Shown: positions 4,012 through 60,611, counted from the first letter of the stretch. The stretch is 64,000 nucleotides of DNA from an uncultured Candidatus Saccharibacteria bacterium (GCA_964361795.1 CAYIBZ010000002.1:9362-73361); one strand, 5' to 3'. Numbers and translations: made by a program. Notes: generated from the sequence alone by a model not told the origin.

Positions 4012-4031
4012 AATTAAAATATTCAAAATTC

Positions 4032-16598: not shown

Positions 16599-17501
16599 TT
16601 AATTAAACTCTAAGAGATCATTCGCGTCGTAACGAGGAATAAAAAATTTGCTATCTTGAGCTGTAATCGAACGCCGATCAATAGTAACTGCGTATCGAAA
16701 ACCAGCTCTATCTAATAGTTCGACGGCTTCCGCCGCATAACGACCATGCGGATAGGAAAAAACATCTACTTCTTTTCTTAAAAGATCGTCCAATTTTTTT
16801 TTAGAATTCCGTAAATCAATTAACGCGTCATTCATGGACAATAGCTCAAAAGAATTATGGTTATGTGAATGGCTGCCAATTGCCATACCTTGGGAAGCCA
16901 ACTTTTTAACCTCATTAGAATTCATAAACAAAATCCGGCATAAATTATTTTCGTCTAAATTGAATTTTTTAAAATAAAAATCTAAAAATTTCTCCCTAAC
17001 GGCATCTGGCAAAATAATCATCGTCTCTTTAAAATTATTTGTCAGCATATCTCCATGTTTACGACGAAAATCGATGCTATGATCTTTCGGAATCGCATAG
17101 CTTTCGCCCGCCCAATTATTAAAAAGATCGATTAATTCTTCTGGGGAGGAACGAGAAAATAGCACGTGGAGTTTATGAGTCAGTGACACCTTAAATTCAA
17201 AAGTAGAGGTGATAATAAAAAAAGTCCCGGTAGCGCTATATTTTTTCAAAATCGGCAAGGCATTTTCGAAATTATCTTTGAAACCGTCATCAAAGGTAAG
17301 CGCACAAAACTTACCATCTACCCCGTTTTTAGCCGCTTCATAAACCTCTGAAACAGAAACAATTTTAAAATTTTCCGATAACAATTTTATCTGCCGGTCA
17401 AATTCGGCAATTGGGCAGGGATGAATACCTAACCAATCAGGACTGGGGTCACGAACATAGTGATAATTGACCACTATATATCGGTCGTTTAAAGCCGGCA
17501 T
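16599..17501 (-). CDS. polysaccharide deacetylase (NodB-homology domain)
   Basis: LTFDDGFKDN motif (TFDDG) and downstream His motifs (HSHNH). Confidence 0.65.
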   Translation of the reverse strand: MPALNDRYIVVNYHYVRDPSPDWLGIHPCPIAEFDRQIKLLSENFKIVSVSEVYEAAKNGVDGKFCALTFDDGFKDNFENALPILKKYSATGTFFIITSTFEFKVSLTHKLHVLFSRSSPEELIDLFNNWAGESYAIPKDHSIDFRRKHGDMLTNNFKETMIILPDAVREKFLDFYFKKFNLDENNLCRILFMNSNEVKKLASQGMAIGSHSHNHNSFELLSMNDALIDLRNSKKKLDDLLRKEVDVFSYPHGRYAAEAVELLDRAGFRYAVTIDRRSITAQDSKFFIPRYDANDLLEFN

Positions 17502-27847: not shown

Positions 27848-29188
27848 TCAAGTCCACCTTGATCGTTCAAGTAAGAACTCGGCAATTCTTTTACCTGATT
27901 GACCGTCAATTTTATAGCATTGCTCTTTAACAAATTTAGATCTTTGCTCCCAATCGGCTTCGCTATTGCGAATGTAAAATTCAATTTTCCTTAATAAATC
28001 CTCTGGACTTTTAGCCAACTTGAAAGAGCCGCTTTCATAAACCCTGCGAACATGATTAAAATCCAACCACCGCGCGACACTTTTCATGTATGGGCGCTTT
28101 TCCAATCCGTCAAAACCAATCAAAATAACCGGTTTTTTAAAAATTGCCGCGTCAATGCCAATCGTTGCTCCGCCAACAACAGCAACATCGCAGTTGGCCA
28201 AACAATCCGCAAGCCAATTTAAGTCCGCTATATCCAATTCCTGATCGCGGGAAATTCCTGGCTTAAACTGGTAACCAGGTTTATCAATAAAACATTTATT
28301 ATTTGGAATGAAACCGTCTAATGAAACTTCATCATTAGGCGTCAATCTTATTAAGATCTGATAACCAGAGTTCTTAAGTATTTCCATAAAGTGCCAATCT
28401 ATATCCCAAAAACGTTTACCATTGGGAGAAAATAAAATTAATTTTTGACTAGGATTTAAATTAATCTTTTTGAAAAAAGCTTCCCGAGAAGTGCGCACAC
28501 CGGTAAAATAATGATCGAATTGCGGAATGCCACTAATAAAAATATCTCTTGGTCTCATCCCTCCAAAACGCATAGCCTCATCATGAATTATCTCATTGTG
28601 AACGATAAGTTTATCGGGTTTAACGCGAAAGAACCCCTTAGTGGTAAAGTTGTCCCAAGATCGGATCATGCCAACCGTACCTTTTTTAAATTTTTTGGCC
28701 GCTGCTAAAAACTTAATATCATAATCATTAAAAATATCTGTAGCAAAAATCAAATCTGGTTGGTATTTTTCAAAATATTTCACAATTGGCCGATAATTTA
28801 TCGTCCACAAATCTGCTAATCTTACAGCTCTTTTTATAAAACCGAGGTGGCTAAAAAATTTCAAAAATACAATGGATATCAAAAATTTCAATACTTTTCC
28901 TTTCTCCCAATAACGCTCCCGATTATGAATTAACAAAGTACGGCTGTCTGCCAATACGCTTCCCAAAAAACGGAACAGAGTGTCCTGGCGAGAAAACGAA
29001 ATAGAATCAATACCTTCAATAGAAATTCGATTGTCGCTATATCTCTTTACAAAGTAATCAACTTTGTAGTCAGGAACCAAAATAATAATCTTGATATCCG
29101 AATTAGCCTTAAGAAAATTAAAAGCGTCAGTAGATAAAATATTCCTAGAAATAAAAGGATTAAAGGCGGTTATAAAAATTGTTTTCAT
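27848..29188 (-). CDS. TagB/TagF-like CDP-alcohol phosphotransferase family protein, paralog 3 of 4
   Basis: Collinear with the other three paralogs (MKTIFITAFNPF..., IFISGIPQFDHYF, LILFSPNGKRFW). Confidence 0.45.
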   Translation of the reverse strand: MKTIFITAFNPFISRNILSTDAFNFLKANSDIKIIILVPDYKVDYFVKRYSDNRISIEGIDSISFSRQDTLFRFLGSVLADSRTLLIHNRERYWEKGKVLKFLISIVFLKFFSHLGFIKRAVRLADLWTINYRPIVKYFEKYQPDLIFATDIFNDYDIKFLAAAKKFKKGTVGMIRSWDNFTTKGFFRVKPDKLIVHNEIIHDEAMRFGGMRPRDIFISGIPQFDHYFTGVRTSREAFFKKINLNPSQKLILFSPNGKRFWDIDWHFMEILKNSGYQILIRLTPNDEVSLDGFIPNNKCFIDKPGYQFKPGISRDQELDIADLNWLADCLANCDVAVVGGATIGIDAAIFKKPVILIGFDGLEKRPYMKSVARWLDFNHVRRVYESGSFKLAKSPEDLLRKIEFYIRNSEADWEQRSKFVKEQCYKIDGQSGKRIAEFLLERSRWT

Positions 29189-34575: not shown

Positions 34576-36652
34576 GTGATGAAACTCAAGATTTTTCTTG
34601 TAATTTCGGCAATTTTAATAGGATCGCTCTATATTACACCGCCATTAATTATAAAATACCGCCTTCAAAAAGAAGGGAAGGTTTTTGCGCTTAATTATGA
34701 AATCTATCGAGATGAACTTTTATATCTTTCGCGGGCGCGGGAAATTTATGATGGACATTTTCCTCCAAGCGATCTCCACTTTGATGAACAGCGCCCTACG
34801 GTCCAGAATCCTATTCCATCGCTAATTCTTGCAGGGATGATTGCTCTTGCCAGCGGCAATGTTCAGGTCGGATATTTAATCGCCCAATTTATCTTCACGC
34901 CGATGATTTTCTTAATCTTCTACTGGTTGGGTAAAAACCTTTTTGAATCAACAACGTGGGCAATTTTATTTGCTTATGTTGGCATTCTTACCCCAATTGC
35001 CCTCCGAATCCTTAATTTCCATGGCGCCTAGAAACCATCCCCAAAATACCTCCGCTCGCGATATGAACCAATTTCCGCAAGGCCAAGGAGCGACGACGAA
35101 GGTGTGCTTATTGCACTCCGAGGAGGAGCCGACACCAGCCTTGCGGAAATTGGTCATATCCCTTATTAGTGGGTTGCGGCGATTTGGAGGTATTTTGGGG
35201 ATGGTTTCTATTTCAGAAATTTTCGCCGATTTCGGCAACGATGGCCTGCGAGAATCTTTTCGGGAATTTTTAGGTTATTTTGTTAAACAATTCTTTCCAT
35301 TAGTAAACACTCAAATAGAAAAACTCTATTATGCCCGGCTCGATTATCCGTTAATAGTGTTTCCAATGTATCTTCTCGCCATACTGGGCCTTTTCTTATT
35401 TTGGAAAAAACCCAGGACATCTACGGCAATTTGGGCGGCAATCCCCGCCGGATTGCTATTTTATTTCTATTTTCATTATTGGGTTTATTGGGTTGTTGTG
35501 TTGGGCCTGTTATTTATTTATTCCTTTTTTACTAAAAACAAAAATTCGCAACTTTTTAAATCTTTCTTGATTCTTATTGGCATTATCGCAGTCATAGCGG
35601 CTCCATATTTTATAAATTATCTGAACTTTAGCAAATTTCCCGATATTAATGATGTTACATTTCGATTGGGAGTTGCTACAGGACGGGCGCCGGGCCTCTC
35701 CACCATTGGTTTAGCGTATCTTGCTTACATTGTTATCGCCGTCGGAATATACTTCTTGTATTTCAAAAAAGGCGAACGAAAAACCGCCGTCTTATTTTGG
35801 TCATTCCTAATTGCCATGATAATTATCTGGAATATCCAACTAGTAGTTGGGTATGTCCCTACCCCTAATAATTGGCGTAGAACCATTAGTCCAATTCTTT
35901 ATATTGTTATTTTCCATTTCGTTTATACGCTAGTTCGAAACACAGAAATTAAATTTCCTCCGATTAAAAAAATCGCCGCCATCACGCTTATCCTTTTAAC
36001 TGCTGGCGTAGTTGCTAAAAAAGTGGCTAACGTTTATGTAATCTATCAAAATCCGGAACCGAGAATACTCACTGGCCAAACGTTGGATAAAGATTTTATG
36101 GACGCCTTCGCCTGGATTGATGCCAATCTGTCACCGGAGTCAAAAATAATCAGCAATTCATTTATGACTTCTATTTATCTTAACGTTTATACATCGGCAA
36201 GGCCATTTCTGCCGCTTTGGATGCTTTCGCCTCAATCAACCAAAGAACTAGAAAATCGTTTCTTAATTTCTCATCGTTTATTCGCAACTTCGCCTCAAAC
36301 ACTCGCAAAAATCGTTTCTTCGGATCTTCCCATAGAATGTGTTGGGGTTTGCCCGTCCAATACCGAAGAGAATCTCCGAAAAAATACTTGGCATTTGTAT
36401 GGCCACTATTTCCGTAGCCGCGGCGACATTAATAGTTACCTTAATCATCCATTAGCGATTACCGATGAATACATCATGACTTTAGTTGAAAAATATAAAA
36501 AAACTAAAGTGAATTTTTCTTCTGTTGATGCCGATTACCTATTTTTTGGTCCTTGGGAAAAGCAATTTAGCGAAATTGATTTCGATCAAAACAAAGATCT
36601 AGAATTAGTTTATCAAAATCCTAACGTGAAGCTGTTCCGAATAAAACGTTAA
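34576..36652 (+). pseudogene. GT-C-like polytopic membrane protein, paralog of 2164..4011, split into two reading frames by a 178-182 nt inverted-repeat element
   Basis: ORF 34576..35031 (frame 1) and ORF 34943..36652 (frame 2) are together collinear with the 628-aa paralog. The break coincides with the IR-bounded insertion at 35029..35210. It could also be a sequencing frameshift or a functional split gene. Confidence 0.5.
35029..35210. mobile_element. MITE-like small element: 25-bp perfect terminal inverted repeats (TAGAAACCATCCCCAAAATACCTCC), nested 16-bp internal inverted repeat, locally GC-rich
   Basis: 35029-35053 is the exact reverse complement of 35186-35210. The inner IR 35068-35083 pairs with 35138-35153. 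The element sits exactly where the host gene changes frame. Removing the 178 nt at 35031-35208 rejoins the two ORFs in frame. Confidence 0.5.
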
Positions 36653-38555: not shown

Positions 38556-39241
38556 TAAGGTTTTTGCAAAATATAATAAATGTATCTGGAAAACCATTGA
38601 TTTGCCGGAAAAATTTTTTTTAGGAATTTCAAATTGTTTAAAAACTTATATTTAAGTTCGACTTTGGCATGATCAGTTTGCAATAAATTAAAATGCTTCA
38701 GAAAAGTTTTCTTGAAAATTGCGCGGGTGAAAAATGTCAAATGATTATCGTCTTCTAAAAAGTGGAAGAGGTTTCCACGGAACAAAAACAACAAACGATT
38801 GAGAATGTGGAACGGATTCGGCGTGGAAACAATAAAGATTCCTCCGGGTTTTAACACGCGAGCGGCTTCGCGAACAAAAAAATGCGGGTTTTCCAAATGT
38901 TCTATGGTCTGAGAAGAAACGATCGCGTCTATGCTGAAATCTGGCCAAGGTAATTTTTCAAAACAAATATCCACCGCCTTAAATGCAAAATTCCTTGATT
39001 CATTAGACCTATAATCATCAATATCAACACCCTTAAGATTTGAGTATCCGCTAGCGGTTAATTGCTTCATTAAAGAACCATCGGCGCAAGCACAATCAAT
39101 AATTGACGATTTCTTCTCCGGAACGTACTTTTGCAACAAACTTAAAATTTTTCCGCTACGAACATCCCAGCTGACCCGTTGCTGTAGTGGTTTTAGAATA
39201 TCCCGTTTATCTTTTATTTCTTTCGGAGTAAGGTATTCCAT
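38555..39241 (-). CDS. class I SAM-dependent methyltransferase (tandem paralog)
   Basis: IIDCACADGSLMKQL motif. Collinear with 37827..38555 (ENPYNFFREAFRVL / ENPHFFVREAARVL). Confidence 0.6.
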   Translation of the reverse strand: MEYLTPKEIKDKRDILKPLQQRVSWDVRSGKILSLLQKYVPEKKSSIIDCACADGSLMKQLTASGYSNLKGVDIDDYRSNESRNFAFKAVDICFEKLPWPDFSIDAIVSSQTIEHLENPHFFVREAARVLKPGGIFIVSTPNPFHILNRLLFLFRGNLFHFLEDDNHLTFFTRAIFKKTFLKHFNLLQTDHAKVELKYKFLNNLKFLKKIFPANQWFSRYIYYILQKP

Positions 39242-40569
39242 AATAGATTAGCGAGCCGTTGGCCTGATTTGCCGTCTAATTTGAAACAAGCGCCCTCGGC
39301 AACTCGTTTCCTGGCTTCTCGATCAATGCCAGGATTCTCTAAATAAAGTTTCAGCAATTCTCGCATTTCTTCTGGGCTTTTGGCAATTTTTAGATTCCCC
39401 GCCTTTATAACTTCCTGCTGATGCTCATATTCATAATAACGCAATAAGCTATCCCAAAACGGCTTTGATTTTTTACCGTCGAAACCGATTAATACTGTCG
39501 GCTTATCAAAAATGGCTGCATCTAAGACTATGCTGGAGGGACTCGTGAGTACTGCGGCACTATGATAAATCAAATCCGCTAAATGCCGATCATCGCTTCT
39601 CCTTAGCATTGACTCTTCCAATTTAGAAGCATTTTTTGGAATATCGAAAACCATGCCTTTCGGCAATTGAAATCCGCCAGTCTCTAAATCGCCAAAAAGC
39701 GGGAAGCGAATCACAACCTGCTCATTCAGTTTAGCCAGCTCTTGAAATAAAAAATTATTAAAAGACTTATCGCCTGTCCAGATATCGCTTGGCGGAGTAA
39801 CAAAAATATACTTCCGTTCTGGGTCTAAACCGATCCGTCTCATAAATTCATTCCGATCGCTTCGTTTTCCAGCTAAATAATCGTCATAATGTGGAATGCC
39901 CACTACTTCAATATCACTTTCAGAAACATTGTGATATTGAATAGTCCAAAGTTTAATATTTGAATTTTGGACTATAACTTTATCTGGCAAAGTACGCAAC
40001 AGTCCTTTAGTGGTCGTACTGTCCCATGATCGGCCCATCCCTATTGTAGGAATATTATGACGTTTGGCTTCGCGAACCAAATAAGAGTCGCTAAATTCTT
40101 GAGCGCGCAAATCCTGTAAGTCCGTAGCAAAAACTAAATCTGGCCTATATTTCTCAAATAACTGCTTGAAGCCGCCGCCTGGAATTAGATAATAATCCAA
40201 AAACCGAAAAATCTTTCTTACTAAAGAAAAGCTGCCTGTCCATGCAATAAAAGAATTAAAAAAGTAATTTAAGTAATTTCGTCTTTTCCCTAACTCAACC
40301 AATCTATGAATCTTTTTACTCTTAGTATTTAATAAATTCCAAGACCAAACATGGAATAAAAGATTAATTTTAGATAGCGGACGAAATGGAATCCTTTCGA
40401 TTATCATACTCAGCCCGCCAAATTCTTTCTGGAAAAAATCGGCATTCTTCTCGGGAACCAATAAAATAATTTTAAGACCTGGTCGATCTTTAATCCGCTT
40501 GAAAAAATTAGTTTCCAGTAAATTCCGCACAACTAAATTAAAAAAGCAGCTTATAAAGATAGTATTCAT
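39214..40569 (-). CDS. TagB/TagF-like CDP-alcohol phosphotransferase family protein, paralog 4 of 4
   Basis: Collinear with the other paralogs (MNTIFISCFF..., VVGIPHYDDYL, IFVTPPSD). Confidence 0.45.
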   Translation of the reverse strand: MNTIFISCFFNLVVRNLLETNFFKRIKDRPGLKIILLVPEKNADFFQKEFGGLSMIIERIPFRPLSKINLLFHVWSWNLLNTKSKKIHRLVELGKRRNYLNYFFNSFIAWTGSFSLVRKIFRFLDYYLIPGGGFKQLFEKYRPDLVFATDLQDLRAQEFSDSYLVREAKRHNIPTIGMGRSWDSTTTKGLLRTLPDKVIVQNSNIKLWTIQYHNVSESDIEVVGIPHYDDYLAGKRSDRNEFMRRIGLDPERKYIFVTPPSDIWTGDKSFNNFLFQELAKLNEQVVIRFPLFGDLETGGFQLPKGMVFDIPKNASKLEESMLRRSDDRHLADLIYHSAAVLTSPSSIVLDAAIFDKPTVLIGFDGKKSKPFWDSLLRYYEYEHQQEVIKAGNLKIAKSPEEMRELLKLYLENPGIDREARKRVAEGACFKLDGKSGQRLANLLWNTLLRKK

Positions 40570-49663: not shown

Positions 49664-50482
49664 TTATTGACGCAGTTTCTCTATTTCTTGTTTAACTGCT
49701 TCAGCTTGAGTATCGCTGAAACCTTCGGCTGTTAAAAATTTCTCAAAATATTTTATTGCTTCCGCTTTTTCTCCGGTATCTCTATAATATAATGCCAGAT
49801 TTAATAACAAATTAGCGTCTTTTGGGACATATACCAACCCTTCAAGCAAAACATCATCCACTAAATCATACTTCTCTTTATAAAAATCTCGGTAAAATTC
49901 CGCTAATCCTAAATGAAAATTGACTGAATTGCGGTCTAATCGAAGGGCTTTATAATAGTTTGATTCGGCCTTCTTAAAATCCCGCAAATATAATGCATAG
50001 AGATTGCCAAGATTAAAATAGTTTAAGCCATAATTGGGATTAATTTTATTTGTGTGATCCCAAACATCTTTTGCTCCGACATAATTATCAACATTTTTTT
50101 TAACTAAGCCAATATCAATCCAATTATCAATCTGATCTGGATTTTTTGTAACTGCCTCTACAAGACTTAGTAATCTATTGCGATTACTTTCCACAAATTC
50201 CTTTGGATACTTTTCCAAAATCTTATAATCTCCAAGATAATCCAACTTCTGACCAGTATATTTTTGCCGAGGCGCAACATCTTTATTTGTGGTACTAATA
50301 ATGTTTTCTGTTGTAGTACTAGCTACTACGTCTGGTTGCGTTATTGGCTCCGATTTGTCAAATAAATAAGCAGAAGTTATCCAACCGCCCGCCGCTAAAA
50401 ACAAACCAAGAGCTGTTATCCAAAATAAAAATTGCTTAGACATATTGACATTTATTAAAGCAAAAAAATGACTAAAACGCAA
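49664..50482 (-). CDS. TPR-repeat protein with N-terminal membrane anchor
   Basis: N-terminal hydrophobic helix, then TPR-like repeats (YFNLGNLYALYLRDFKKAESNYYKAL...). Confidence 0.55.
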   Translation of the reverse strand: MRFSHFFALINVNMSKQFLFWITALGLFLAAGGWITSAYLFDKSEPITQPDVVASTTTENIISTTNKDVAPRQKYTGQKLDYLGDYKILEKYPKEFVESNRNRLLSLVEAVTKNPDQIDNWIDIGLVKKNVDNYVGAKDVWDHTNKINPNYGLNYFNLGNLYALYLRDFKKAESNYYKALRLDRNSVNFHLGLAEFYRDFYKEKYDLVDDVLLEGLVYVPKDANLLLNLALYYRDTGEKAEAIKYFEKFLTAEGFSDTQAEAVKQEIEKLRQ

Positions 50483-50507
50483 ACCCCTCCGATGTCCATC
50501 GGAGGGG
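50462..50507 (-). terminator. intrinsic terminator downstream of the giant surface-protein gene
   Basis: CCCCTCCGATG-TC-CATCGGAGGGG, a 9-11 bp GC-rich stem at 50484-50507. The minus strand continues TTTGCGTTTTAGTCATTTTTTT. Confidence 0.5.
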
Positions 50508-50544
50508 TAGCGCTTTAACTAAAGCTCAAGCCTTTAGCTAAGAA

Positions 50545-53500
50545 TTAACTACTCTTACTTAACGTTTCAGCAACGCCCGTATCGGTATTACTCAAACCAG
50601 GCACCAGGAATCCGTTAAACCAATCATAATCAACAACATTCTGACTGCTATTGGTAGAATTACCGGACCAGATAAAGTCGTTGTCGCTGTACAAGTCAGT
50701 GAGACCGGCAGTGGTAGCAAATATGTAACGACCAGTGCTCCAGTCATCGCTATCCGCGGTATTTTCCTTACCACCGTTTTCGTCCGCAACACGACCAGTT
50801 ACATGACCGCCAACCGCAAAGCTTGCATCGCCCTGCATCTTGACCGTAATGCTATGCGTAGTAGTGGCATTAGTGATATCACCAAGCAATTCAAACCATC
50901 TAGTTGTGCCAGCTGTAATTCGGATAGCTTCAGGCGTACCGCTAGCTGTCGCAGTCGGATTGAAGTAAACAGATAGATCAACATCTTGATCTCCTTGTAA
51001 GACCGTACCATCGCCATCAGCAATACCGCCAGCTAAAGCTTCTGTAGAAGCCTCAACCATGAATGCTGGCATATGAACGGATGTGGAACCAAAGTCCACG
51101 TTATCCTCTACGCCATTAGCAATAGCCAAAGCATATTGATTCATAAGACCGTTTGTATTTCCACAAGACGGCGTCACGAATTCATCGGAATAACATTTGA
51201 CTTGCAAGTTAGCCACTGTAAAGTCATTGCTGAAATCGGTATCTATATTACTTCCGGCGTCACCATCGTCAGTTGGCAATTCAACTACATCTTTTGAGGA
51301 AGTTGACAAGTTAAACGTGAACTTGTATAAACTGACGCCATTGGTACCCGAAGGAGCAGAGACTTTGAACCTATACAAAGCTTTGCTTGTGGCGTTTTGA
51401 CCAAATGTATTGTTCGGCAAGGACAGCTTAGTTACGGTCGGATACGCCCTTGCTAATCTAGCGCCATTAGTACCGGTGTCAGAACCCGCAGAACCGATAG
51501 TAGTTCCAGATGATCCCCCTACGCCAACAACACCTCTCTGACAAGTTGCGTTATCGCAGTTTGTTGAGTTAGAAGCGTCATAATTGATAAATAGCATATG
51601 ACCAGGACGTCCTGCTAAGGAAGTGCCAATTAGGCCTGCGTCAGCTTTAACGGTAAGAATAACCTGGCCATCTTTTGGAACGGTAACGCCAGTCAAAGTT
51701 GCAGTCGCGTAATCCGTAGAAGTGAATACTGCTTCGCCAACCTTAGTTGGTGGATTTGTTGCGTTATTCCAAATCGTTACTTTAGCAACGTCAGATGGGG
51801 AGTTAGAAGCATTGGAAGGAGCATTAGAGTCAGTTGAGGTAGCTATCTGCAAACCAAGAGTGTTAACTATAACATCCTCATCGGTAGCATTTAGTCTCAA
51901 TGACAGCAAAGTATTATCTGTAGAACCGGCCTGTACCCATTTAAGCGGAGTAACTGGATCTTCATTAGCCGACAAACTTCCGCCACTCACGGCGGTAATA
52001 ATACGGCCATCATTAGCAGTAATAGAATCTGAACCGTCAACCGTTTGGCCGGATGTCATTCCGGTAGCGGTTAGAGATGCGTCAGCATCGGTAATACCCC
52101 ATTCCCATTGATGACCAAGAGCAGCGCCAGCAACTAAGTTGCATTTAACACTTAGGGTTTTTACTGTTCCTTTCGGAACAATCAAACCGGTATCAAAGGC
52201 AAATGTTCTATTGGCCGCGCTTGTAAGGCTGTTGGTCGGATTTTCCAGATTGCCGCCAGTATTTAATGGCGTAGATCCATCGTAAAGTTGGCAATTGGTC
52301 AGATCGTCAGCGGCATTTGCGGAAGTGAAAGTAAGCCGCAACTGCATTCCTGTAACACGAACATCTTCACCGGAACCGCTTGCGTCTAGTACATAATCAG
52401 TGAACTTGTAATTACCGGTTCCAGCAACCACATTTTGAGCAGTAGTACTGCCATTAGCTTGTGTATTTGGAGTCAGAGTCAACGTCAAAACCGCGGCCTT
52501 AACAGTCATAGTACTCATCGTTACCGCGCTAGAAGGACTCGGAGTAACCGTAGTAGTAGATGTTACACCTTTCACTGTCGTCCAGTCACTGCTCGGAGTG
52601 GTAGAAGCGGCAACTGTATCGTTATTACCGATATCAGTACCAATTTTACCTTTCAAGGTATAGACCGTACGGCCAGGTTTGAATGTAACAGTATTGGTAA
52701 ACCTAATACCGTTATTACCTCCGGCTGATCCATCCACCGGACCAGCAACCACGGTGCCGCTTGCGTCAGCCAAAGTAATACCAGTTATGTCGTTAGTATC
52801 AATGGATGCGCCAGTAGCGCTATCGGTGCCATCATCAACAACACTCAAGTCAAAGTTCATGCCAGCAACAGTAATATCTTCACCTTTAACATCTACAATT
52901 AAACCACCTAGTGGCTGATCCCCCAGAGAAATTGCGATGTTCTGGGAACCAACAGAAGTGGCATTTTGGGCTGTAATTGTTCCAGAGCCAATATACGCTT
53001 CATAGGCGTCAAAGTTTGGCTCTTCCGTACCGATACTGCCGTTGTCGTCAGTAGCAGTGTGAGCGGCAGCGCCGCCATCCCTACTTGGCAAAACGGAATA
53101 ATTGTAAGTCTTGCCAACAGCTTGAATATCGGCAAATCGGAACACATCTAAGTCAACAGTTCTTCCGGAACCGCCAACCACATCACCTCTAACGTAAACC
53201 TGTTTATTCAAACCTTTCAAAACCGTAACGCCATCGCCAAATTTACCGGTGTAGTACTTTCCATCGGAACTAACGGTAGCTACATAATCTGTTCCATCAA
53301 GATTAACTTTGACGTTAGCAAGATCGGCAGCGCCCGCTGAACCGTTCTGGTACCACCTAACAGATTTAAGTAAGATGTCTTCGTCAGAACCTGCGATAAG
53401 TCTCAAGCCAGAGAAGATTGAACCAGCGGTGCCAACCTCTTTCGTTAGGCCAGCGCCCGGATCAAAAGCGCCAATTGCAACAGTTAAGGTTCCAATTGCC

Positions 53501-54438
53501 AAAGTGCTGTTAACAGTGTGAGTTGCCCCAACCAAAGGATAGGAAGCATTCACATTTGCACTCCCAGCATCAACTTTTGTTAAACTCAATGAAACCAGTT
53601 GACCATTGTAGTCATTCTGATCGCTATCAGAATCACCAGCTAAGCTCATAGTTCTGGTTTTACCAGCTTTGACGGTAAACTTTTCAGTTAACGTCAATGT
53701 ATGATCAGAACCAAATGTCTTAGTTGCGCCTAGTCTTGTGCCGTCTTCATCTAAAAGAATAACGCCTGAGAAAGCGGAATCATTAGCTTGACCAGTTCTT
53801 TCAACCTTCAAAGAATTGACGGTTACATCGCCATCAGCCGAAGCAGTGAAGTTCAATTTCGTAAAATCTCGGCTGGCAAATGATTCACCGAACAAGCCGT
53901 TTGCCGGTTGATTAGGAGCTAAAGTAACAGTTAAACCTGTACCAGCAGGAGCGCCGGGCGCAGCTGGAGCAGGAGCGCCAGGTGCGGCAGCAAGCGACGT
54001 GTACTTTGCTCTAGATTTTGGACCGAAATAACCAACAGCCGGTGAAAGGTTGTTGGCGGCTTGCCATTTGGCTACGGCTGCTCTAGACAACGAACCAAAA
54101 TAAGTAGTTTCATTGCCAGGAGAACCTGCGCCACTAGCGGCAACTTTCTGGCCAGCGCCATTTAGGTATTGCTGTAAGCATTTCACGTCATCCCCCTTTG
54201 AACCCACGGTGAGGTCGCGAGTAAAGTTGCATGACGGAGCCGCTGCAGCGCCACCTGTTTGGGCAGCCAATTGCGCCTGAAGGGCCGCAATCTGTTGTAG
54301 CAAAGCATTGATTTGCGCTTGCAAATCAGTTGCTTGTGCGTGTGCGACTGGTACAAGCATCGTAAAACCAGAAAGCCAAAGAGCAGTTGTAGCTGAAAGC
54401 ACAACTGAAGTGACTTTCCTTGTTATGTTTGTACTCAT
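50545..54438 (-). CDS. giant secreted/surface protein (1297 aa): signal peptide, coiled-coil, peptidoglycan-binding domain (PG_binding_1), Pro/Ala linker, long Thr/Gly/Ser/Ala/Val-rich beta-rich region (S-layer/adhesin-like)
   Basis: N-terminal hydrophobic signal (VVLSATTALWLSGFTMLVPVAHA) then LQAQINALLQQIAALQAQL. PG-binding motif GSKGDDVKCLQQYLNGAG...YFGSLSRAAVAKWQAANNL. APGAPAPAAPGAPAG linker. Remainder is low-complexity T/G/S/A-rich. Locally GC-rich relative to the window. Confidence 0.6.
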   Translation of the reverse strand: MSTNITRKVTSVVLSATTALWLSGFTMLVPVAHAQATDLQAQINALLQQIAALQAQLAAQTGGAAAAPSCNFTRDLTVGSKGDDVKCLQQYLNGAGQKVAASGAGSPGNETTYFGSLSRAAVAKWQAANNLSPAVGYFGPKSRAKYTSLAAAPGAPAPAAPGAPAGTGLTVTLAPNQPANGLFGESFASRDFTKLNFTASADGDVTVNSLKVERTGQANDSAFSGVILLDEDGTRLGATKTFGSDHTLTLTEKFTVKAGKTRTMSLAGDSDSDQNDYNGQLVSLSLTKVDAGSANVNASYPLVGATHTVNSTLAIGTLTVAIGAFDPGAGLTKEVGTAGSIFSGLRLIAGSDEDILLKSVRWYQNGSAGAADLANVKVNLDGTDYVATVSSDGKYYTGKFGDGVTVLKGLNKQVYVRGDVVGGSGRTVDLDVFRFADIQAVGKTYNYSVLPSRDGGAAAHTATDDNGSIGTEEPNFDAYEAYIGSGTITAQNATSVGSQNIAISLGDQPLGGLIVDVKGEDITVAGMNFDLSVVDDGTDSATGASIDTNDITGITLADASGTVVAGPVDGSAGGNNGIRFTNTVTFKPGRTVYTLKGKIGTDIGNNDTVAASTTPSSDWTTVKGVTSTTTVTPSPSSAVTMSTMTVKAAVLTLTLTPNTQANGSTTAQNVVAGTGNYKFTDYVLDASGSGEDVRVTGMQLRLTFTSANAADDLTNCQLYDGSTPLNTGGNLENPTNSLTSAANRTFAFDTGLIVPKGTVKTLSVKCNLVAGAALGHQWEWGITDADASLTATGMTSGQTVDGSDSITANDGRIITAVSGGSLSANEDPVTPLKWVQAGSTDNTLLSLRLNATDEDVIVNTLGLQIATSTDSNAPSNASNSPSDVAKVTIWNNATNPPTKVGEAVFTSTDYATATLTGVTVPKDGQVILTVKADAGLIGTSLAGRPGHMLFINYDASNSTNCDNATCQRGVVGVGGSSGTTIGSAGSDTGTNGARLARAYPTVTKLSLPNNTFGQNATSKALYRFKVSAPSGTNGVSLYKFTFNLSTSSKDVVELPTDDGDAGSNIDTDFSNDFTVANLQVKCYSDEFVTPSCGNTNGLMNQYALAIANGVEDNVDFGSTSVHMPAFMVEASTEALAGGIADGDGTVLQGDQDVDLSVYFNPTATASGTPEAIRITAGTTRWFELLGDITNATTTHSITVKMQGDASFAVGGHVTGRVADENGGKENTADSDDWSTGRYIFATTAGLTDLYSDNDFIWSGNSTNSSQNVVDYDWFNGFLVPGLSNTDTGVAETLSKSS

Positions 54439-54580
54439 ATATTTTTTATTTTCTTTAAATTATTTAACTAATTAATTGTATATTTTTTAATTGTCAGAAA
54501 AATTACCAGAAGTCCTTCTCTTACGCTCATGCGATAGAGAATCGACCCAGACAACGAGATAATTTTAGGTATCAAAGAAT

Positions 54581-54605
54581 AAAAAAACTCTCCCTTTTTT
54601 GGGAG
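54581..54605 (-). terminator. putative intrinsic terminator downstream of 54740..55342, upstream of the surface-protein promoter region
   Basis: CTCCC-TTTTTT-GGGAG short GC stem. Plus-strand AAAAAAA at 54581-54587 gives a T-tract on the minus strand. Confidence 0.4.
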
Positions 54606-54739
54606 GCCATCAGACATTAGAACAAACTTTGCGCTTGGTAAAAACCAAACACAAAAGCTTTTCTAAAAAGTCTTGATTCAGCCTCACCCGGAATCAAAAC
54701 AGAATATTAACCTATACGTTAATTATAACGAAAAAGCGA

Positions 54740-55342
54740 TTATTTCATTACATAGTAACTTCCCGGACCGCCGTTTCCAACTCTTTCAATAATGCCCTGA
54801 TTACATAACTTCTGGAGGTCATACCTCATAGTTCTTTCACTAATATCCGGAAATTCGGCAATTATATCCTTAAGCTGGAGTTGCCGATTTGCCGATTGCC
54901 GCATTCTTTCAACAATTGCCGATTGCCGCATTGCCGGATTATTGTATTGCCGGTTTTGGTTGTTTTCATCAGAAGGATAACTATGTTCCTCTGTTTGTTG
55001 AGAAGAATAAACAGGCAATCTTGAGAACAGAGACTCTAAATTTGGTACTCCTTGCGGTAATTCGGCAATTTGCTTCATTGCCGAATTAAGACTATTAAGC
55101 TCTCTAATAAGGATAGAGGCGTTGGTCGGTTCTATCTCAAAAATGGACCTGCCTACATTGATCAGGCTATCCAAAGACAATACGGTCTTGTTAATAGCAG
55201 AAAGATCCATAGATGCCGTATCTTCTATCAATTGGAAGGATAATTTTTCTATTCTTTGTTTTAATTCTGATCTCCTGATATATGCGGCAACTCTGATTAG
55301 GGCATGGCTGATTTCTTGAGCTTTCTGATTAACAAACATCAA
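54740..55342 (-). CDS. hypothetical protein with C-terminal winged-HTH-like segment
   Basis: C-terminal LKDIIAEFPDISERTMRYDLQKLCNQGIIERVG resembles DeoR/HTH-type DNA-binding helices. Internal MRQSA peptide repeat encoded by TTGCCGATTGCCGCATT direct repeats. Confidence 0.3.
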   Translation of the reverse strand: MMFVNQKAQEISHALIRVAAYIRRSELKQRIEKLSFQLIEDTASMDLSAINKTVLSLDSLINVGRSIFEIEPTNASILIRELNSLNSAMKQIAELPQGVPNLESLFSRLPVYSSQQTEEHSYPSDENNQNRQYNNPAMRQSAIVERMRQSANRQLQLKDIIAEFPDISERTMRYDLQKLCNQGIIERVGNGGPGSYYVMK

Positions 55343-55456
55343 AAATTAGTTTAAACTATGCGTATATGGAAGTCAAAAAAGCAGTTTTGCCGCTTGCCGG
55401 ACTGGGAACCCGGATAATGCCGCTAACTATACATCATCCGTAATTAAAATTTAATT

Positions 55457-57160
55457 TTGATGTTTACGAAAAAAAATGCGTTGCTCGCGCTTGCCGGCAT
55501 AATGCTGATTGGAGCCGTATTAAGATTTTGGAATATTAATCTTCCCGACATTGCCATTGATGACGCGTTATACTCCTTAAGATCAATTGGTTACATAGAT
55601 TATGTCGCCGCGATAAACCGGCAATCAACTCCAATTTCCTGGTTTTCTGAATCGCAATGGTGGCAATATCTTTCTTTTCATGATGCGCCGCCGCTAGTGT
55701 TTTGGGTGCAATGGTTATTTTTCCAAATTGGCGATGATAATATTTTTTTTGCCAGATTGCCGTTTGTAATTGCCGGATTAAGTTCAATACTGGCAATGTA
55801 CTTTTTGGGTAAAAAACTTGGAGGTGAAATTGCCGGTTTGCTTTCTGCTGGATTTTTAACAATATCAAACTATGCTATTTGGGTTTCCAGAATCGGCTAT
55901 TTAGACGGATTTTTGATTCTTTGGATCGCTTTATCTATATATTTTTTCATAAAAGCTGAAGAAAAATCTAAAAACTATATTTGGTGGGGAACAACTTTAG
56001 CCGCCGGCTTACTCACTAAATACACCTTTTTATTTATGGGTCCGGTATTTCTATTGCTGATTTTAATCTGGAGAAAAAGCGCGTTTCGCCAAAAATATTT
56101 TTATTTGGGAATTTTAGCAATAATAATTCTTATTTCTCCAATAATTGTTTATAACTTTATGATGTTCACGGCTAGAGGACATTTAGACGCCGCCCTTTCA
56201 ACTCTAGTCGGCCAAAAACCAGTTGATTTTCAAGGATTAACACGGGAAAAAAATATAGATTTGGACATTATTCCGGCAGTTAAAAGAATCGTCAGCAGAA
56301 ATTTCAGCGCGGGAATATGGATTATTTTGACAATGGGCATCATCGGTTCCATTCTCAATAAAAATAGAAATTCTAATAAGATTATAATGTTCATCGGATT
56401 GCTGTTTGGAATAATAATGTTAACTGTTACCGGGCCCAAAGACCGCTTCGGCGTCATACTTCTGCCATTCATTGCCTACCTTTTCAGCGCGGGAATTATT
56501 TGGGTTTATGCGAAATCGCCCAGTTGGAGCAAACCGTTAATTTCCATATTCACAGTGTCGTTCGTTTTATGGGAATTATTTTTTGCCGTTCAAACTCAAG
56601 TGATGGCCAACCCCTTAATTGAATCGCCGGTATTTTTATCTGTTAATCGCCCGATATTTGCCGGATACAATAATCTGGAAAATTACGTAAAAGCTTTTTA
56701 TGAAAAATTTAACGGCTTGTCAAAAATCATAATTTTCGCTGAAGAACCTCAACTTGCCAAATATCAGGAGAAGCGTGTTCTTGAACAACTGAAACTTAAT
56801 CCTAATCTTAAAAATCAAGAACATCTTCTGGTATTTGATGACCGCATGAGATGGTTTTCTTGGGTTTGGATTTTTGAGCGGCGGCGGCTTTACGAATCGG
56901 CGCCGATACATTCCATTGGCCAATTTCTGGAAAAACTGGATAAGCAAGATATTGAATTTTACACAAAGTCAGGCCTCAAAGACGCAACTTTTATTGTCGC
57001 AACCGAAAAAATATTGCCAACGGAAGAAAATTATATTGATGACCCGCGAACAAATTTTATCAGCGATTTAGAATCGTACGCCAAGCCAAACCAAGAAATC
57101 TTTGACCACCAAGGAGAAATAATTTTTAGGATGTACCGATTGCCTCTTAGCGCGTTTTAA
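55457..57160 (+). CDS. GT-C fold lipid-carrier-dependent glycosyltransferase (PMT/ArnT-like, GT39/GT83 family)
   Basis: N-terminal TM then DDALYSLRSIGYIDY and HDAPPLVFW loop motifs. About 12 TM helices and a C-terminal soluble domain. Next to the giant surface protein gene. Confidence 0.55.
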   Translation: MMFTKKNALLALAGIMLIGAVLRFWNINLPDIAIDDALYSLRSIGYIDYVAAINRQSTPISWFSESQWWQYLSFHDAPPLVFWVQWLFFQIGDDNIFFARLPFVIAGLSSILAMYFLGKKLGGEIAGLLSAGFLTISNYAIWVSRIGYLDGFLILWIALSIYFFIKAEEKSKNYIWWGTTLAAGLLTKYTFLFMGPVFLLLILIWRKSAFRQKYFYLGILAIIILISPIIVYNFMMFTARGHLDAALSTLVGQKPVDFQGLTREKNIDLDIIPAVKRIVSRNFSAGIWIILTMGIIGSILNKNRNSNKIIMFIGLLFGIIMLTVTGPKDRFGVILLPFIAYLFSAGIIWVYAKSPSWSKPLISIFTVSFVLWELFFAVQTQVMANPLIESPVFLSVNRPIFAGYNNLENYVKAFYEKFNGLSKIIIFAEEPQLAKYQEKRVLEQLKLNPNLKNQEHLLVFDDRMRWFSWVWIFERRRLYESAPIHSIGQFLEKLDKQDIEFYTKSGLKDATFIVATEKILPTEENYIDDPRTNFISDLESYAKPNQEIFDHQGEIIFRMYRLPLSAF

Positions 57161-57163
57161 GGT

Positions 57164-57898
57164 TTAAATTCCCCACTTCGTAGTTCCAAAAATAATAACC
57201 AGTAAAATCACGAAAACTGTTAAGTATCTTAAAATCAGCCGCTTGTTTAGGGATTGGTCAGCTTGGCGGGCAATCAAACTGGTTAATGTAAAATAGGTTA
57301 AAAAAACTAAACTTGCCGCGTTAATTGGCCCGAGCGGCAGTAAAGCCGCGAGCCAAGTAATTTCAGAAATAATAAACGCGGCCAGTAAAGCGACTAAAAT
57401 TTTTCTTGCGTAAAGGTTTCGTATCAGAACAAGAGCGGCTAAAAATAATCCAAAAAAATCCAATAAGAAAAATTTGGAAAGATCCGAGTAAAAAAACAGG
57501 ACGGCTGACGCGTAAAATAAAGAAAAATTTAAGAAGCTCTGCCAAAAGCTCCGATTAATTAAAATCAAATCTTTAATGCCTAAAATTAAATAAAAAAGAA
57601 ATACGGCGCCTAACCAGATCAATAAAAAATAACCGCTGTCTAAAGTTTTGCCAGCCGCCAATAAAGAAATGGCTATCAAGATCAGCAAATTGTACGATTG
57701 ATTAAAGCTATTAAACAGCGGACTGGTATAGAGAAATAAGGCAATTCCCAGAAAAAACAAAATCGGGAGCAATCCTAAACTCCCAATTTTTACCAACGCT
57801 AATCCTCCCCCAAAAATAAGGGCCTTAAGCGCTAACCGTAATTGTTGATCCCGCAAAACCAATCTTAACCTTGTCTCCATTTTTAATTTCGCCGCCAA
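57164..57898 (-). CDS. polytopic membrane protein, function unknown
   Basis: 244 aa, mostly hydrophobic helices. Overlaps the 3' end of clpB by about 70 nt, so the true start is probably internal. Confidence 0.3.
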   Translation of the reverse strand: MAAKLKMETRLRLVLRDQQLRLALKALIFGGGLALVKIGSLGLLPILFFLGIALFLYTSPLFNSFNQSYNLLILIAISLLAAGKTLDSGYFLLIWLGAVFLFYLILGIKDLILINRSFWQSFLNFSLFYASAVLFFYSDLSKFFLLDFFGLFLAALVLIRNLYARKILVALLAAFIISEITWLAALLPLGPINAASLVFLTYFTLTSLIARQADQSLNKRLILRYLTVFVILLVIIFGTTKWGI

Positions 57899-60434
57899 TA
57901 ATCTTATCTGCTAGTCTATCTAAGACCGCTTTTTGAATCAACCTCTTGATGGGGCGGGCGCCGTAATCGGGGTCAAAGCCATGGTCAACAATATATTTCT
58001 TGGCAGAACCGTCAATGGCAATCTTAATATCTCTTTCCTGTAATTTATTTCTGACTAACTCCAATTGAATGTCAACAATCTTTTCAATGTCTTTCTTTTT
58101 CAAAACATTAAAGATAATAACTTCGTCAATTCGGTTCAGAAACTCCGGCTTAAAACTATTTCGCAAAGATCCGCGCACTTTTTCCTTAAAATCGTTTTCC
58201 TGTCTGCTGATGTCTCCATCGGTCAGAGCGGTAAAACCGATCTGAGACATTTCCCGGAAATAATGGCTTCCCACGTTGGAGGTCATGATAATAATGGAAT
58301 TCTTGAAATTAACTATTTTGCCCTTGCTGTCGGTCAAGCGGCCATTATCCAAAATTTGCAGCAGTATGTTAAACACCTCCGGATGCGCTTTTTCAATTTC
58401 GTCAAACAAAATCAAACTGTAGGGCCGGTGTCTTACGATTTCCGTCAACTGCCCCCCATCTTCGTGGCCGACATATCCGGGCGGGGAGCCAATCAGTCTG
58501 GCCACTGAATGCTTTTCCATATATTCGGACATATCAATTCGCACTATGGCCTTTTCGTCGTTGAACATAAACTCCGCCAAAGCTCTAGCCAATTCGGTTT
58601 TTCCAACTCCGGTGGGGCCAAGAAACATGAAAGATCCTAGCGGACGATGTTCGTCCGATAAACCAGCTCTTGCCCGCCGCAAAGCGTTAGAAACCGCGCT
58701 TAAAGCCTCTTCCTGGCCAATAACCCGATTGCTCAAATCATCTTCCAGTCTAGTTAGTTTCCGCATCTCTGATTCCAGCATTCTATTCACCGGAATGCCG
58801 GTCCAGCGCGAAACAACCGCGGCAATATCTTCGGCGTCAATGGACTCTTTGATGGAAGAAAATTTATTTTTCTTTTCAAAATTTTTATATTCTTTTTCCG
58901 ATTGAGGCAAAGCGCCGTATAAAAGCTGGGCAACTTTTTCCAAATCGCCGTCTCTTTCCGCTATTTCCGCTTGATGCTTCAAGTCGTCAATCTTTTTGCG
59001 CAAATTATTTAATTTTTCAAACGCCACTTTTTCGGCGCTCCAATTGGCTGAAAGCGATTCATTACTATCCTTGAGAACGGCAATTTCTTTCTCTATGGCT
59101 TTTAAGCGATTTTTATTTTTGACCGCTGATTCTTTCATCAAAGCGGAACGTTCTATTTCAAGGCGAGTCAGCTCCCTCCGGGTTTTATCAATATCTGAAG
59201 GCAAACTTTCCGTTGCCAAACGGCGCGCGGCCGACGCTTCGTCAATCAAATCCACCGCTTTATCCGGCAAAAATCGGTCGGTAATATAGCGGGCCGAGAG
59301 ATTAACCGCTGACACAATTGCCTCATCGCTAATTCTCAAGCCATGATGAGTTTCGTATTTTTCTTTCAAACCGCGGAGAATTGCCATCGCGTCTTCGGTA
59401 GTCGGTTCTTCCACCATGATTGGCTGAAAACGCCGCTCAAGCGCCGGATCTTTTTCTATATGGCGCTGATATTCCCGAATGGTAGTCGCGCCGATAGCGT
59501 GCAGTTCTCCCCTTGCCAATGGCGGCTTCAAAAGATTAGAAGCGTCAATCGCGCCTTCCGCCGCTCCCGCGCCGACAATCGTGTGAATTTCGTCAATAAA
59601 CAAAATAAGGCGTCCGGCGGAATTTTGAATTTCTTTCACGAATGCTTTTAGACGATCTTCAAATTCGCCTCGGAATTTTGTGCCGGCAATTAAAGATCCA
59701 AGATCAAGCATGATGATTTCTTTATCTTTTAGGGTTTCGGGGACGTCGCCGGCGATAATTCTTTGGGCCAATCCCTCAACAATCGCCGTTTTTCCGACGC
59801 CGGGTTCGCCAATCAAAACCGGATTATTTTTTGTGCGCCGGGAAAGAACCTGAATCAATCTCCGCAATTCTTCGCCTCTTCCAATCACCGGATCTAATTT
59901 TCCCGCCTTTGCTTTCTCGGTCAAATTAATCGCGTACTTTTCCAAAACTTGAAACTTGCTTTCCGGAGTTTCGTCAGTGATTCTTGACGAACCTCGCAGT
60001 TGGGCCAAAGCTCTCAACGCCACTTCGCGCCGCGCGCCCACCCTTTCTAAAATCTTCTGGGCTGAAGATGAACAGTCAAAAATGCTTAACAGCAAATGTT
60101 CGCAGGAAATATATTCATCCTTTTGAGAAAGCGCGATTTTGCCCGCTCTATCCAAAACCTGCATTAATTCCGGCGAAAGATAAAGCTGTCCCACGCTGGA
60201 AGCGGTAAAAATTTTAGGCATCTTTTTCATCTCTTCTTCAATCTCTTTATACAAACTGTCTAAATTGACTCCGGACTTAACTAACATCGGTCTGATCAGA
60301 GATTGTTCGTCGCCCATTAGCGAATGAAGCAGATGAAGAACCCTAAATTCTCCGTGATTTTTTTGCGCCGCTAATTCCTGGGCGTTTTGCAATGCTTCTT
60401 GAGCTTTTATTGTGAACCTATTAAATGATGGCAT
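57825..60434 (-). CDS. clpB: ATP-dependent chaperone ClpB (AAA+ disaggregase)
   Basis: Two AAA+ modules ([15 protein letters not shown] Walker A; [16 protein letters not shown] second Walker A), a coiled-coil middle domain, and the N-terminal [16 protein letters not shown] Clp_N. Start set at the internal ATG (60432-60434) matching canonical ClpB N-termini. The ORF-track extension to 60581 is not supported. Confidence 0.8.
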
Positions 60435-60611
60435 AGCAGTAATGTCTAAACGCTCATTTTTCTTAATTGAAGGCCTCGATTTTGCGACCAAGTTCGAGGC
60501 GCGCTGACGAATCGTACCTGTGTACGATGAGGAAGCGTAACGAAGAAATTGTCCAAAATCGGGCCTCCTTCGGTAAGACAATTTTGATCAACTCCTTTGT
60601 TGCTCAAGCTC

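Follow-up and report, generated by a model that had tools for sequence, protein, structure and literature searches.

What kind of protein is encoded by the giant gene in positions 50545-57160 of the 64,000-nt stretch GCA_964361795.1 CAYIBZ010000002.1:9362-73361 (the window in what follows), and does the glycosyltransferase gene that lies close by belong with it? A preliminary description of this DNA had proposed a glycosylated surface-layer (S-layer) protein or adhesin together with its own protein glycosyltransferase. We conclude, with a probability of roughly 0.55, that the gene encodes a major S-layer-type cell-envelope surface protein of a groundwater Paceibacteria bacterium (Parcubacteria, within the Candidate Phyla Radiation, CPR); its lattice, abundance and location we infer. 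The more general idea of a secreted, wall-anchored surface protein, whether S-layer or adhesin, is supported by its fold, its family-wide conservation, its codon bias and the anatomy of its transcription unit. The proposed O-glycosylation by the neighbouring enzyme is unsupported: the linkage of the two genes is not conserved, the enzyme's profile resembles ArnT at least as closely as protein O-mannosyltransferases, and the surface protein has no Ser/Thr-rich disordered region.

The surface protein and its family

The open reading frame (ORF) at 50545-54438 on the minus strand is a genuine coding sequence for a protein of 1297 aa, the length first given for it, and an identical protein is present on contigs from Hainich groundwater well H51, 0.1 um fraction (ENA ERZ1292623). 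The mature protein is 129 kDa with an isoelectric point (pI) of 4.4, and Cys makes up 0.6% of its residues. From the N-terminus onwards its parts are:

54334..54438, minus strand: signal-peptide-like N-terminus, aa 1-35, with R7/K8 in the n-region, a hydrophobic core and a putative cleavage site between VAHA and Q
54259..54330, minus strand: short coiled-coil helix, aa 37-60, with L39, I43, L46, I50, L53 and L57 at heptad positions a/d
53986..54240, minus strand: PG_binding_1 domain, aa 67-151, a three-helix bundle with a pI of 9.5 and conserved Cys70/Cys87
53938..53985, minus strand: Pro/Ala-rich flexible linker, aa 152-167, with a predicted local distance difference test score (pLDDT) <50 and a single Thr
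50548..53937, minus strand: about six beta-sandwich (Ig/cohesin-like) domains, aa 168-1297, as modelled by AlphaFold2

When judged by eye, the N-terminus, MSTNITRKVTSVVLSATTALWLSGFTMLVPVAHA followed by Q, is built like a Sec signal peptide, with n-, h- and c-regions. It is hydrophobic in 101 of 116 homologs, and AlphaFold2 gives pLDDT <50 across aa 1-36, which are disordered. In the coiled coil, all of the a/d residues except L57 (five of six) are almost invariant among 80 aligned family members. PG_binding_1 (PF01471) is the sole Pfam match of the protein (aa 82-133, E 1.4e-7, 32 bits against a cutoff of 23) and is annotated in most homologs; for aa 67-151, sequence and fold both agree with the three-helix bundle of known PG-binding domains. 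The signal peptide (by eye), coiled coil, PG_binding_1 domain and Pro/Ala linker of the preliminary description are thus all in place. We found no further transmembrane (TM) segment, no C-terminal TM segment and no LPXTG motif. An SLH domain (PF00395) had no Pfam match at E<=0.01 in this protein or at E<=1 in five homologs, and searches of NCBIfam and of PDB sequences gave no match to the protein. The conserved signal-like N-terminus, the PG_binding_1 domain and the conserved Cys, together with the lack of another TM segment or LPXTG motif, point to an extracytoplasmic, wall-bound protein. As in proteins of the S-layer class, apparent secretion would be combined with a cell-wall anchoring module.

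The body had been described as about 1100 aa of low-complexity sequence, and this part of the description does not hold. Shannon entropy is 3.1-3.8 bits per 50 aa (>=3.3 in 24 of 25 intervals), and self-BLAST found no internal repeats. AlphaFold2, run with an 80-sequence alignment in two segments, gave all-beta domains with a mean pLDDT of 87.8 and a predicted template modelling score (pTM) of 0.69 for aa 1-660, and 83.7 and 0.79 for aa 641-1297. Entropy, model confidence and conservation rule out low complexity or disorder of the body of about 1130 aa. The T/G/S/A/V-rich composition was correctly described (T 12.5, A 11.3, G 11.1, S 9.0 and V 8.1%), and D and N are also abundant. Structure matches of the body were Ig/cohesin-type sandwiches only, and Pfam found no family over aa 168-1297 in six diverse family members. 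Cys716 and Cys766 are invariant in both family alignments. Cys70 and Cys87 are almost invariant in the 22 closer sequences, with Cys70 as the consensus residue in the 80-sequence alignment. These conserved pairs are consistent with extracytoplasmic disulfides. By eye only, we also saw a periodic pattern, x-L-x-f-x-a-s-x-EDV-x-v, roughly each 165 aa. PF27214, absent from the Pfam version that we scanned, is listed for one homolog (P0067), a match that was not reproduced.

A word-indexed protein search returned 623 matches. Among the best 120, which we inspected, nearly all are full length (1150-1300 aa) and come from metagenome-assembled genomes of Patescibacteria/Parcubacteria; their database names are missing, generic or wrong, and include 'DNA topoisomerase IV subunit A' and 'SpoIID/LytB protein' without domain support. 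An exhaustive HMMER scan of 1.84 billion representatives with aa 160-1297 as the query gave 905 clusters at E<=1e-10, of which 414 reach E<=1e-30. A core from about aa 163 to aa 1050 is conserved, and the C-terminal 250 aa or so are variable (conservation 0.1-0.5, gaps up to 77%). For the scan of GTDB species genomes we used a profile of the 22 closer sequences, the 80-sequence alignment having no sufficiently conserved stretch, and obtained 80 loci in 80 different genomes, with one copy per locus. Their record names cover many Parcubacteria 'candidate phyla', among them Harrison-, Lipton-, Yanofsky-, Giovannoni-, Campbell-, Taylor-, Ryan-, Nomura-, Kaiser-, Vogel-, Sung- and Adlerbacteria. 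On these searches we regard the family as an uncharacterised, near single-copy one that is conserved across groundwater Paceibacteria/Parcubacteria (CPR) lineages. Many 'MAG TPA_asm' genomes with the family bear the title 'uncultured Candidatus Saccharibacteria', and one bears 'Gammaproteobacteria', titles that are probably wrong.

The gene had also been noted as GC-richer than its surroundings. It is (46.4% GC, against about 40% for the contig), but the excess is purely compositional. GC at the second codon position (GC2) is 0.51 versus about 0.34 in neighbouring genes, and GC at the third (GC3) is 0.367, inside the neighbours' range, so the excess comes from the Ala, Gly, Thr and Ser codons of the protein. 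This rules out high GC as a sign of foreign origin.

Codon choice is distinctive in its own right. The window gene uses GCT at 0.50 and GGT at 0.46 (both 0.24 in neighbours), favours NNC codons for Asn, Phe and Tyr, and makes little use of GGG, CCC and TCG. Across 63 loci, AAC/TTC/TAC stand at 0.61/0.59/0.59 versus 0.36/0.30/0.34 in neighbours, and GGG at 0.04 versus 0.16. In the 15 loci carrying both, the adjacent rplJ/rplL genes show less of this bias. We read it as translational selection on a very abundant protein, so the surface protein is probably expressed at a very high level. Antisense ORFs of 100-200 aa inside the gene (51722-52111 and 52435-52728, plus strand) recur in 26-36 loci; most likely they reflect its codon composition and are not genes themselves.

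A three-gene module with a structured leader

The genes that keep company with the surface-protein gene were found by unbiased clustering of all ORFs in the 80 loci, with the loci that have enough flanking sequence as denominators. The two partners in the window, and the signals between them, are:

49664..50443, minus strand: TPR partner, 259 aa, with an N-terminal TM anchor (one TM segment) and TPR repeats (Pfam TPR)
50483..50508, minus strand: intrinsic terminator-like hairpin, 11 pairs of which 7 are GC, beginning 37 nt past the surface-protein stop codon
54514..54547, minus strand: leader box/hairpin P4 (GGTCGATTCTCTATCGCATGAGCG...), conserved in closer relatives, its pairing seen by eye only
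54580..54605, minus strand: leader hairpin P3, a conserved intrinsic terminator, CUCCC-N6-GGGAG and then U7
54627..54656, minus strand: leader hairpin P2, whose sequence varies between loci, seen by eye in aligned loci and uncounted
54670..54700, minus strand: leader hairpin P1 with a conserved GUGAGG(C) loop, preceded by -10-like boxes at 54722-54727 and 54704-54709
54740..55339, within the ORF 54740-55342, minus strand: winged helix-turn-helix (wHTH) partner of about 200 aa, in which a variable linker joins a helical N-domain to a C-terminal winged HTH of DeoR type (Pfam HTH_DeoR, E 3.6e-7)

A TPR protein of about 260 aa follows directly downstream on the same strand in 66 of 69 loci, with a median gap of 128 nt. 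A wHTH protein of about 200-300 aa (alignment A6) lies directly upstream on the same strand in 60 of 68 loci, and 50 of 59 loci have both. These near-universal same-strand partners define the conserved unit as wHTH, surface protein and TPR. The regulator-like ORF that had been placed between the surface-protein and PMT-like genes is this DeoR-like HTH protein; its N-terminal helical domain of about 110 aa had no family match. Further out the neighbourhood is looser. GT4 genes, belonging to a GT4/Wzx/TagF-like glycan cluster, occur downstream of the module in 30 of the 54 loci with >=5 kb of downstream sequence, and ClpB upstream in 31 of 56. In 16 loci of other lineages rplJ/rplL are downstream instead, so the link to a glycan cluster is lineage-specific. 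Between ClpB and the module, 24 loci have a protein of about 240 aa with eight TM-like segments and a weak match to DUF5656 (E 7e-5, slightly under the cutoff). In the window it is at 57164-57898 on the minus strand and overlaps the ClpB ORF (57825-60581) by 74 nt.

The surface-protein gene appears to be transcribed on its own. Besides the hairpin past its stop codon there are two further terminator-like hairpins after the wHTH gene, and terminator-like hairpins on both sides suggest a separate transcription unit. The 300 nt between the wHTH and surface-protein genes contain the conserved elements P1-P4 (alignments A3 and A8; upstream regions of loci L013-L053), which make up a structured leader of about 250 nt, with an A-rich run between P4 and the ATG.

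P1 is the best defined of these elements. It was found in 25 of 54 upstream regions, at 0.79 per kb versus 0.028 per kb elsewhere in the loci, and is the only such hairpin in the window. Its stem covaries: 83% of cells are paired versus 67% in shuffles (0/500) and 23-58% in slid controls, and seven of eight pairs have changes on both sides. The cognate arms pair at -10.4 kcal/mol versus -5.5 for swapped arms. The distance from P1 to the ATG is mostly about 250-350 nt (maximum 560), and that from the wHTH stop codon is 42 to 600 nt. In 22 of 28 cases the P3 terminator lies 50-130 nt past P1. The sequence of its stem changes from locus to locus, suggestive of compensatory changes, and its 5' arm is often GCCUC, complementary to the P1 loop.

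Highly expressed surface-protein genes of Gram-positive bacteria can have 5' stabiliser hairpins and transcription-attenuation leaders upstream. The leader here resembles these in starting with a stable hairpin after -10-like boxes and in containing an intrinsic terminator. It differs in having no Rfam match and in its conserved GUGAGG(C) loop complementary to the 5' arm of the terminator. It may act as an attenuator-type leader or be a small RNA, or it may be a 5' stabiliser together with the wHTH gene's terminator. The Shine-Dalgarno consensus is GGAGGUGA, and the P1 loop was dropped as a mimic of it because GUGAGG is not collinear with that sequence.

The PMT-like neighbour and the glycan cluster

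Upstream of the module, and pointing away from it, is the glycosyltransferase gene. It and four TagF-like genes on the other side of the surface-protein gene are:

55502..57160, within the ORF 55457-57160, plus strand: PMT_2/PMT-family GT-C glycosyltransferase, divergent and a neighbour only
10675-11988, 17489-18820, 27848-29188 and 39214-40569, all minus strand: four paralogous TagF-like Glyphos_transf proteins (Pfam)

The preliminary description had a GT39/GT83-type enzyme across the regulator-like ORF, and the Pfam matches agree: PMT_2 at 91 bits (E 9e-26) and PMT at 42.5 bits (E 7e-11), both above cutoff. With nine TM-like segments and the invariant loop-1 Asp, D35 (motif DDA.Y), its sequence is that of a genuine GT-C enzyme. 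A single-sequence PDB search found no match, and a profile search was needed. The PMT-family profile matched ArnT (5ezm, E 3.5e-6) better than the protein O-mannosyltransferases (PMTs; 9i5k, 1e-4; 6p25, 1e-2) and STT3B (1.4e-2), and hence is not closer to PMTs than to other GT-C enzymes. ArnT is a lipid A transferase, so with the profile nearer to it neither an acceptor class nor a protein acceptor can be inferred.

The pairing of this gene with the surface-protein gene is not kept in relatives. We built a hidden Markov model from 95 PMT homologs and searched within 10 kb of the surface-protein gene in the 80 loci. None of the 62 loci with >=3 kb of upstream sequence has a PMT-family gene upstream. 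Strong hits occur in 4 of 80 loci (7 ORFs), all downstream, along with 3 weak ones, which leaves 76 of 80 without a strong match. Co-conservation in the sense of linkage therefore fails. The downstream PMT_2 paralogs lie directly beside the surface-protein homolog in L051 and L053 and nearby in L042 and L045. In two of these they are in tandem, three in L053:10611-17434 and two in L051:6510-12004; another tandem pair, L012:8001-11454, is in an unrelated context. Six neighbourhoods of homologs (44-67% identity) have no PMT gene between the polytopic protein of about 240 aa and the wHTH gene; this slot is empty there or holds an NTP_transferase or an unrelated 518-aa polytopic protein. Large polytopic ORFs are not enriched near the surface-protein gene (0.027 per kb within 4 kb versus 0.034 at 4-10 kb). 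The nearest PMT homologs (50-52% identity) are in unrelated contexts. In assembly CAYSWC01 the two proteins co-occur but are unlinked, with the PMT homolog on contig 2 and the surface-protein homolog on contig 1. From gene order in these genomes, we consider the pairing to be peculiar to the genome studied here.

The 518-aa protein belongs to a polytopic family of about 520 aa with an N-terminal N-I-x-D-x-D-S-F-Y-Y motif and no Pfam or PDB match. Members occupy the PMT slot upstream of the wHTH gene in L015:7417-8970, L020:7486-9015, L031:7127-8710 and L050:6559-8136, and one is downstream of the surface-protein gene (L040:14347-15915). The 518-aa protein of L009/L015 had no BLASTP match to the window's PMT-like protein. 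Alignment of the family to the PMT profile with hhalign gave a probability of 49% (E 1.8e-4), at which we did not accept the 518-aa protein as a GT-C enzyme; the family may be a second GT-C-like one.

As described earlier, the surface-protein gene is at one end of a glycan cluster, which is about 50 kb long. Apart from the TagF-like proteins it encodes a Wzx-like flippase, many GT4 enzymes, methyltransferases including a TylF-type O-methyltransferase, a PAPS-reductase-like protein, two radical SAM enzymes (one B12-binding), a fatty-acid desaturase and an AMP-binding enzyme. This glycopolymer pathway is unusually elaborate for a small-genome CPR bacterium. The DPM1-like GT2 was correctly recognised: the protein at 4760-5698 is DPM1/ArnC/GtrB/PgfS-like, with two C-terminal TM helices and a full-length alignment to ArnC (E 8e-56). 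Its gene is 50 kb from the PMT-like gene and two genes from the polytopic protein at 2164-4050, with a GT2 at 4032-4760 between. Three more GT-C-like proteins had been claimed. Three polytopic proteins are there, but only one has a family match (YfhO, over its C-terminal 70 aa). Those at 2164-4050 and 34943-36652 had no Pfam, NCBIfam or PDB match, and to call them GT-C enzymes or oligosaccharyltransferases is a guess.

Among window ORFs of >=150 aa, Pfam and NCBIfam found no Wzy_C/O-antigen-ligase-type oligosaccharyltransferase and no priming phosphoglycosyltransferase. Nor were TagO/TagA priming enzymes, an LCP ligase or a TagGH exporter detected in the 64 kb; these could lie elsewhere in the genome. 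The four Glyphos_transf proteins are TagF-like polyol-phosphate transferases, as expected of a wall teichoic acid-type cluster. By its gene content the cluster looks more like a pathway for a teichoic-acid-like wall polymer with extracytoplasmic decoration than like an S-layer glycosylation cluster.

Models of function and what they mean for Paceibacteria

If the protein is an S-layer-type protein, we would picture its assembly as follows. Export would be through Sec, with removal of the signal peptide. The N-termini would oligomerise by way of the short coiled coil, the basic PG_binding_1 domain would keep the protein on peptidoglycan non-covalently, and the Pro/Ala linker would serve as a hinge. 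The six or so acidic beta-sandwich domains would point outward and pack into a surface layer, with the variable C-terminal 250 aa as an exposed tip. The wHTH protein and the leader would control expression, and the TPR protein may aid export or assembly.

SbsB of Geobacillus stearothermophilus has an SLH anchor and six Ig-like domains (PDB 4AQ1). Like Gram-positive S-layer proteins of this type, the surface protein has a likely Sec signal, an N-terminal wall module and about six beta-sandwich domains. Its acidic body, basic anchor, low Cys content and richness in T/A/G/S/V/D/N fit S-layer-like chemistry. The gene is apparently monocistronic and probably highly expressed, with a long leader, and a glycan cluster adjoins it in many relatives. 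Unlike the SbsB type, it is anchored by PG_binding_1 after a coiled coil rather than by SLH, CWB2 or LysM; it has no sequence similarity to that type, and its conservation across deep lineages is unusually high.

Several points weigh against an S-layer. The two-dimensional lattice, the abundance and the surface location are all inferred. The best structural matches include no solved S-layer protein, and PG_binding_1 is not known to us as an S-layer anchor. Rapid divergence is usual for S-layer proteins, and the 35-68% identity kept here across deep lineages would also fit a sheath, a periplasm-like scaffold or a wall spacer. The signal peptide was called by eye and not by a predictor, and codon bias is only a proxy for expression.

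The same architecture could also be that of a host-attachment adhesin or fibril on an episymbiotic CPR cell, a wall-anchored stalk with the variable C-terminal 250 aa as its binding tip and no closed layer. The tandem Ig-like array fits adhesins and pilins (PrgB, SiiE, UafA, Cna-type) no worse than any other structures, the C-terminal region is the most variable part, and Paceibacteria are reported as epibionts. Adhesins, however, usually differ in their number of repeats, and many are strain-specific or present in several copies. Members of this family are instead constant in length and architecture, lack internal repeats and keep a strongly conserved core, and each locus in the 80 genomes has a single copy. 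A codon bias stronger than in ribosomal-protein genes speaks for a structural protein made in bulk, and the pTM values of 0.69-0.79 over 660-residue segments suggest fixed inter-domain packing and not beads on a string. We consider an adhesin unlikely. A peptidoglycan-remodelling enzyme or scaffold seems very improbable. PG_binding_1 usually accompanies wall hydrolases and is found in SleB, CtpB, endolysins and L,D-transpeptidases, and some database entries carry enzyme names, but these names are mutually inconsistent, the body is wholly beta-sandwich, and no catalytic domain was found by Pfam, NCBIfam, PDB sequence or fold search of the protein.

Two routes of glycosylation could be added to the S-layer reading. 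By one of them, the adjacent PMT-like enzyme would O-glycosylate Ser/Thr residues with a polyprenyl-phosphate sugar from the GT2 at 4760-5698. Actinobacterial Pmt/Ppm1 and streptococcal GtrB + GT-C systems (PgtC2, Pgf) are the closest parallels: the window has a PMT_2 GT-C with the loop-1 acidic motif 1 kb upstream of the surface-protein gene and an ArnC/GtrB-type synthase, and the streptococcal systems O-glycosylate surface proteins (PMC12041528). The paralogs downstream in four loci, the possibly GT-C-like family in the upstream slot of four others and the co-occurrence in CAYSWC01 can be counted in its favour. Against it, relatives do not keep the two genes adjacent, the surroundings of the surface-protein gene show no enrichment of polytopic proteins, and the closest PMT orthologs are in unrelated contexts; the PMT-like gene is divergently transcribed, its profile is at least as near to ArnT, which has a lipid acceptor, and the donor gene is 50 kb off, two genes from a different polytopic protein. 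Known bacterial GtrB + GT-C systems also glycosylate Ser/Thr-rich disordered regions (PMC12041528), whereas the Thr and Ser of this protein are in confidently folded strands and its linker has a single Thr. We think this route quite improbable. The other route would use the downstream GT4/Wzx cluster to build and flip a lipid-linked glycan that an O-oligosaccharyltransferase transfers en bloc. In Geobacillus and Paenibacillus, slg clusters follow S-layer genes, and here too a glycosyltransferase-rich cluster with a flippase is directly downstream of the structural gene. GT4 genes come after the TPR gene in over half of the loci with enough sequence (30/54), and the polytopic proteins at 2164-4050 and 34943-36652 could be the transferase. 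Unlike the slg clusters, the window yielded no WsaB-type (Wzy_C) O-oligosaccharyltransferase or WsaP-type priming enzyme, and its four TagF-like enzymes point to a teichoic-acid-like polymer; a strong terminator separates the surface-protein gene from the cluster, and the rplJ/rplL lineages make the link lineage-specific. Such a route is unlikely as well.

For the S-layer reading itself a more specific form can be proposed, which we hold tentatively and regard as doubtful. The protein would be the first S-layer type with a coiled coil and PG_binding_1 anchor, that of Paceibacteria, encoded in a dedicated wHTH/TPR module, with expression gated by a new leader whose GUGAGGC loop pairs with the 5' arm of the terminator (attenuation/antitermination).

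The literature leaves room for such a protein. The CPR envelope has been described as unclear (PMC5220378), and Parcubacteria cells as having an 'apparent S-layer', with unnamed PG-binding proteins suggested as its basis (bioRxiv 10.1101/2022.04.20.488981). Electron cryomicroscopy of CPR/Patescibacteria shows surface layers with unnamed proteins, and among CPR, SLH proteins have been reported in Absconditabacteria only. Our literature search found no characterised S-layer protein of Patescibacteria/CPR and no report of GT39 in Patescibacteria.

CPR/Patescibacteria make up a large share of bacterial diversity. A near-universal and probably very abundant Paceibacteria protein with a confident model would be a candidate for fitting into electron cryotomography maps and a marker for metaproteomics. 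It may also serve as an antigen or label for enrichment and imaging, and as an entry to the host and phage contacts of episymbionts. That the PMT link is not conserved should stop an 'S-layer glycosyltransferase' mis-annotation from spreading. Through its wHTH and TPR partners and the leader, the regulation and assembly of this surface protein become open to experiment.

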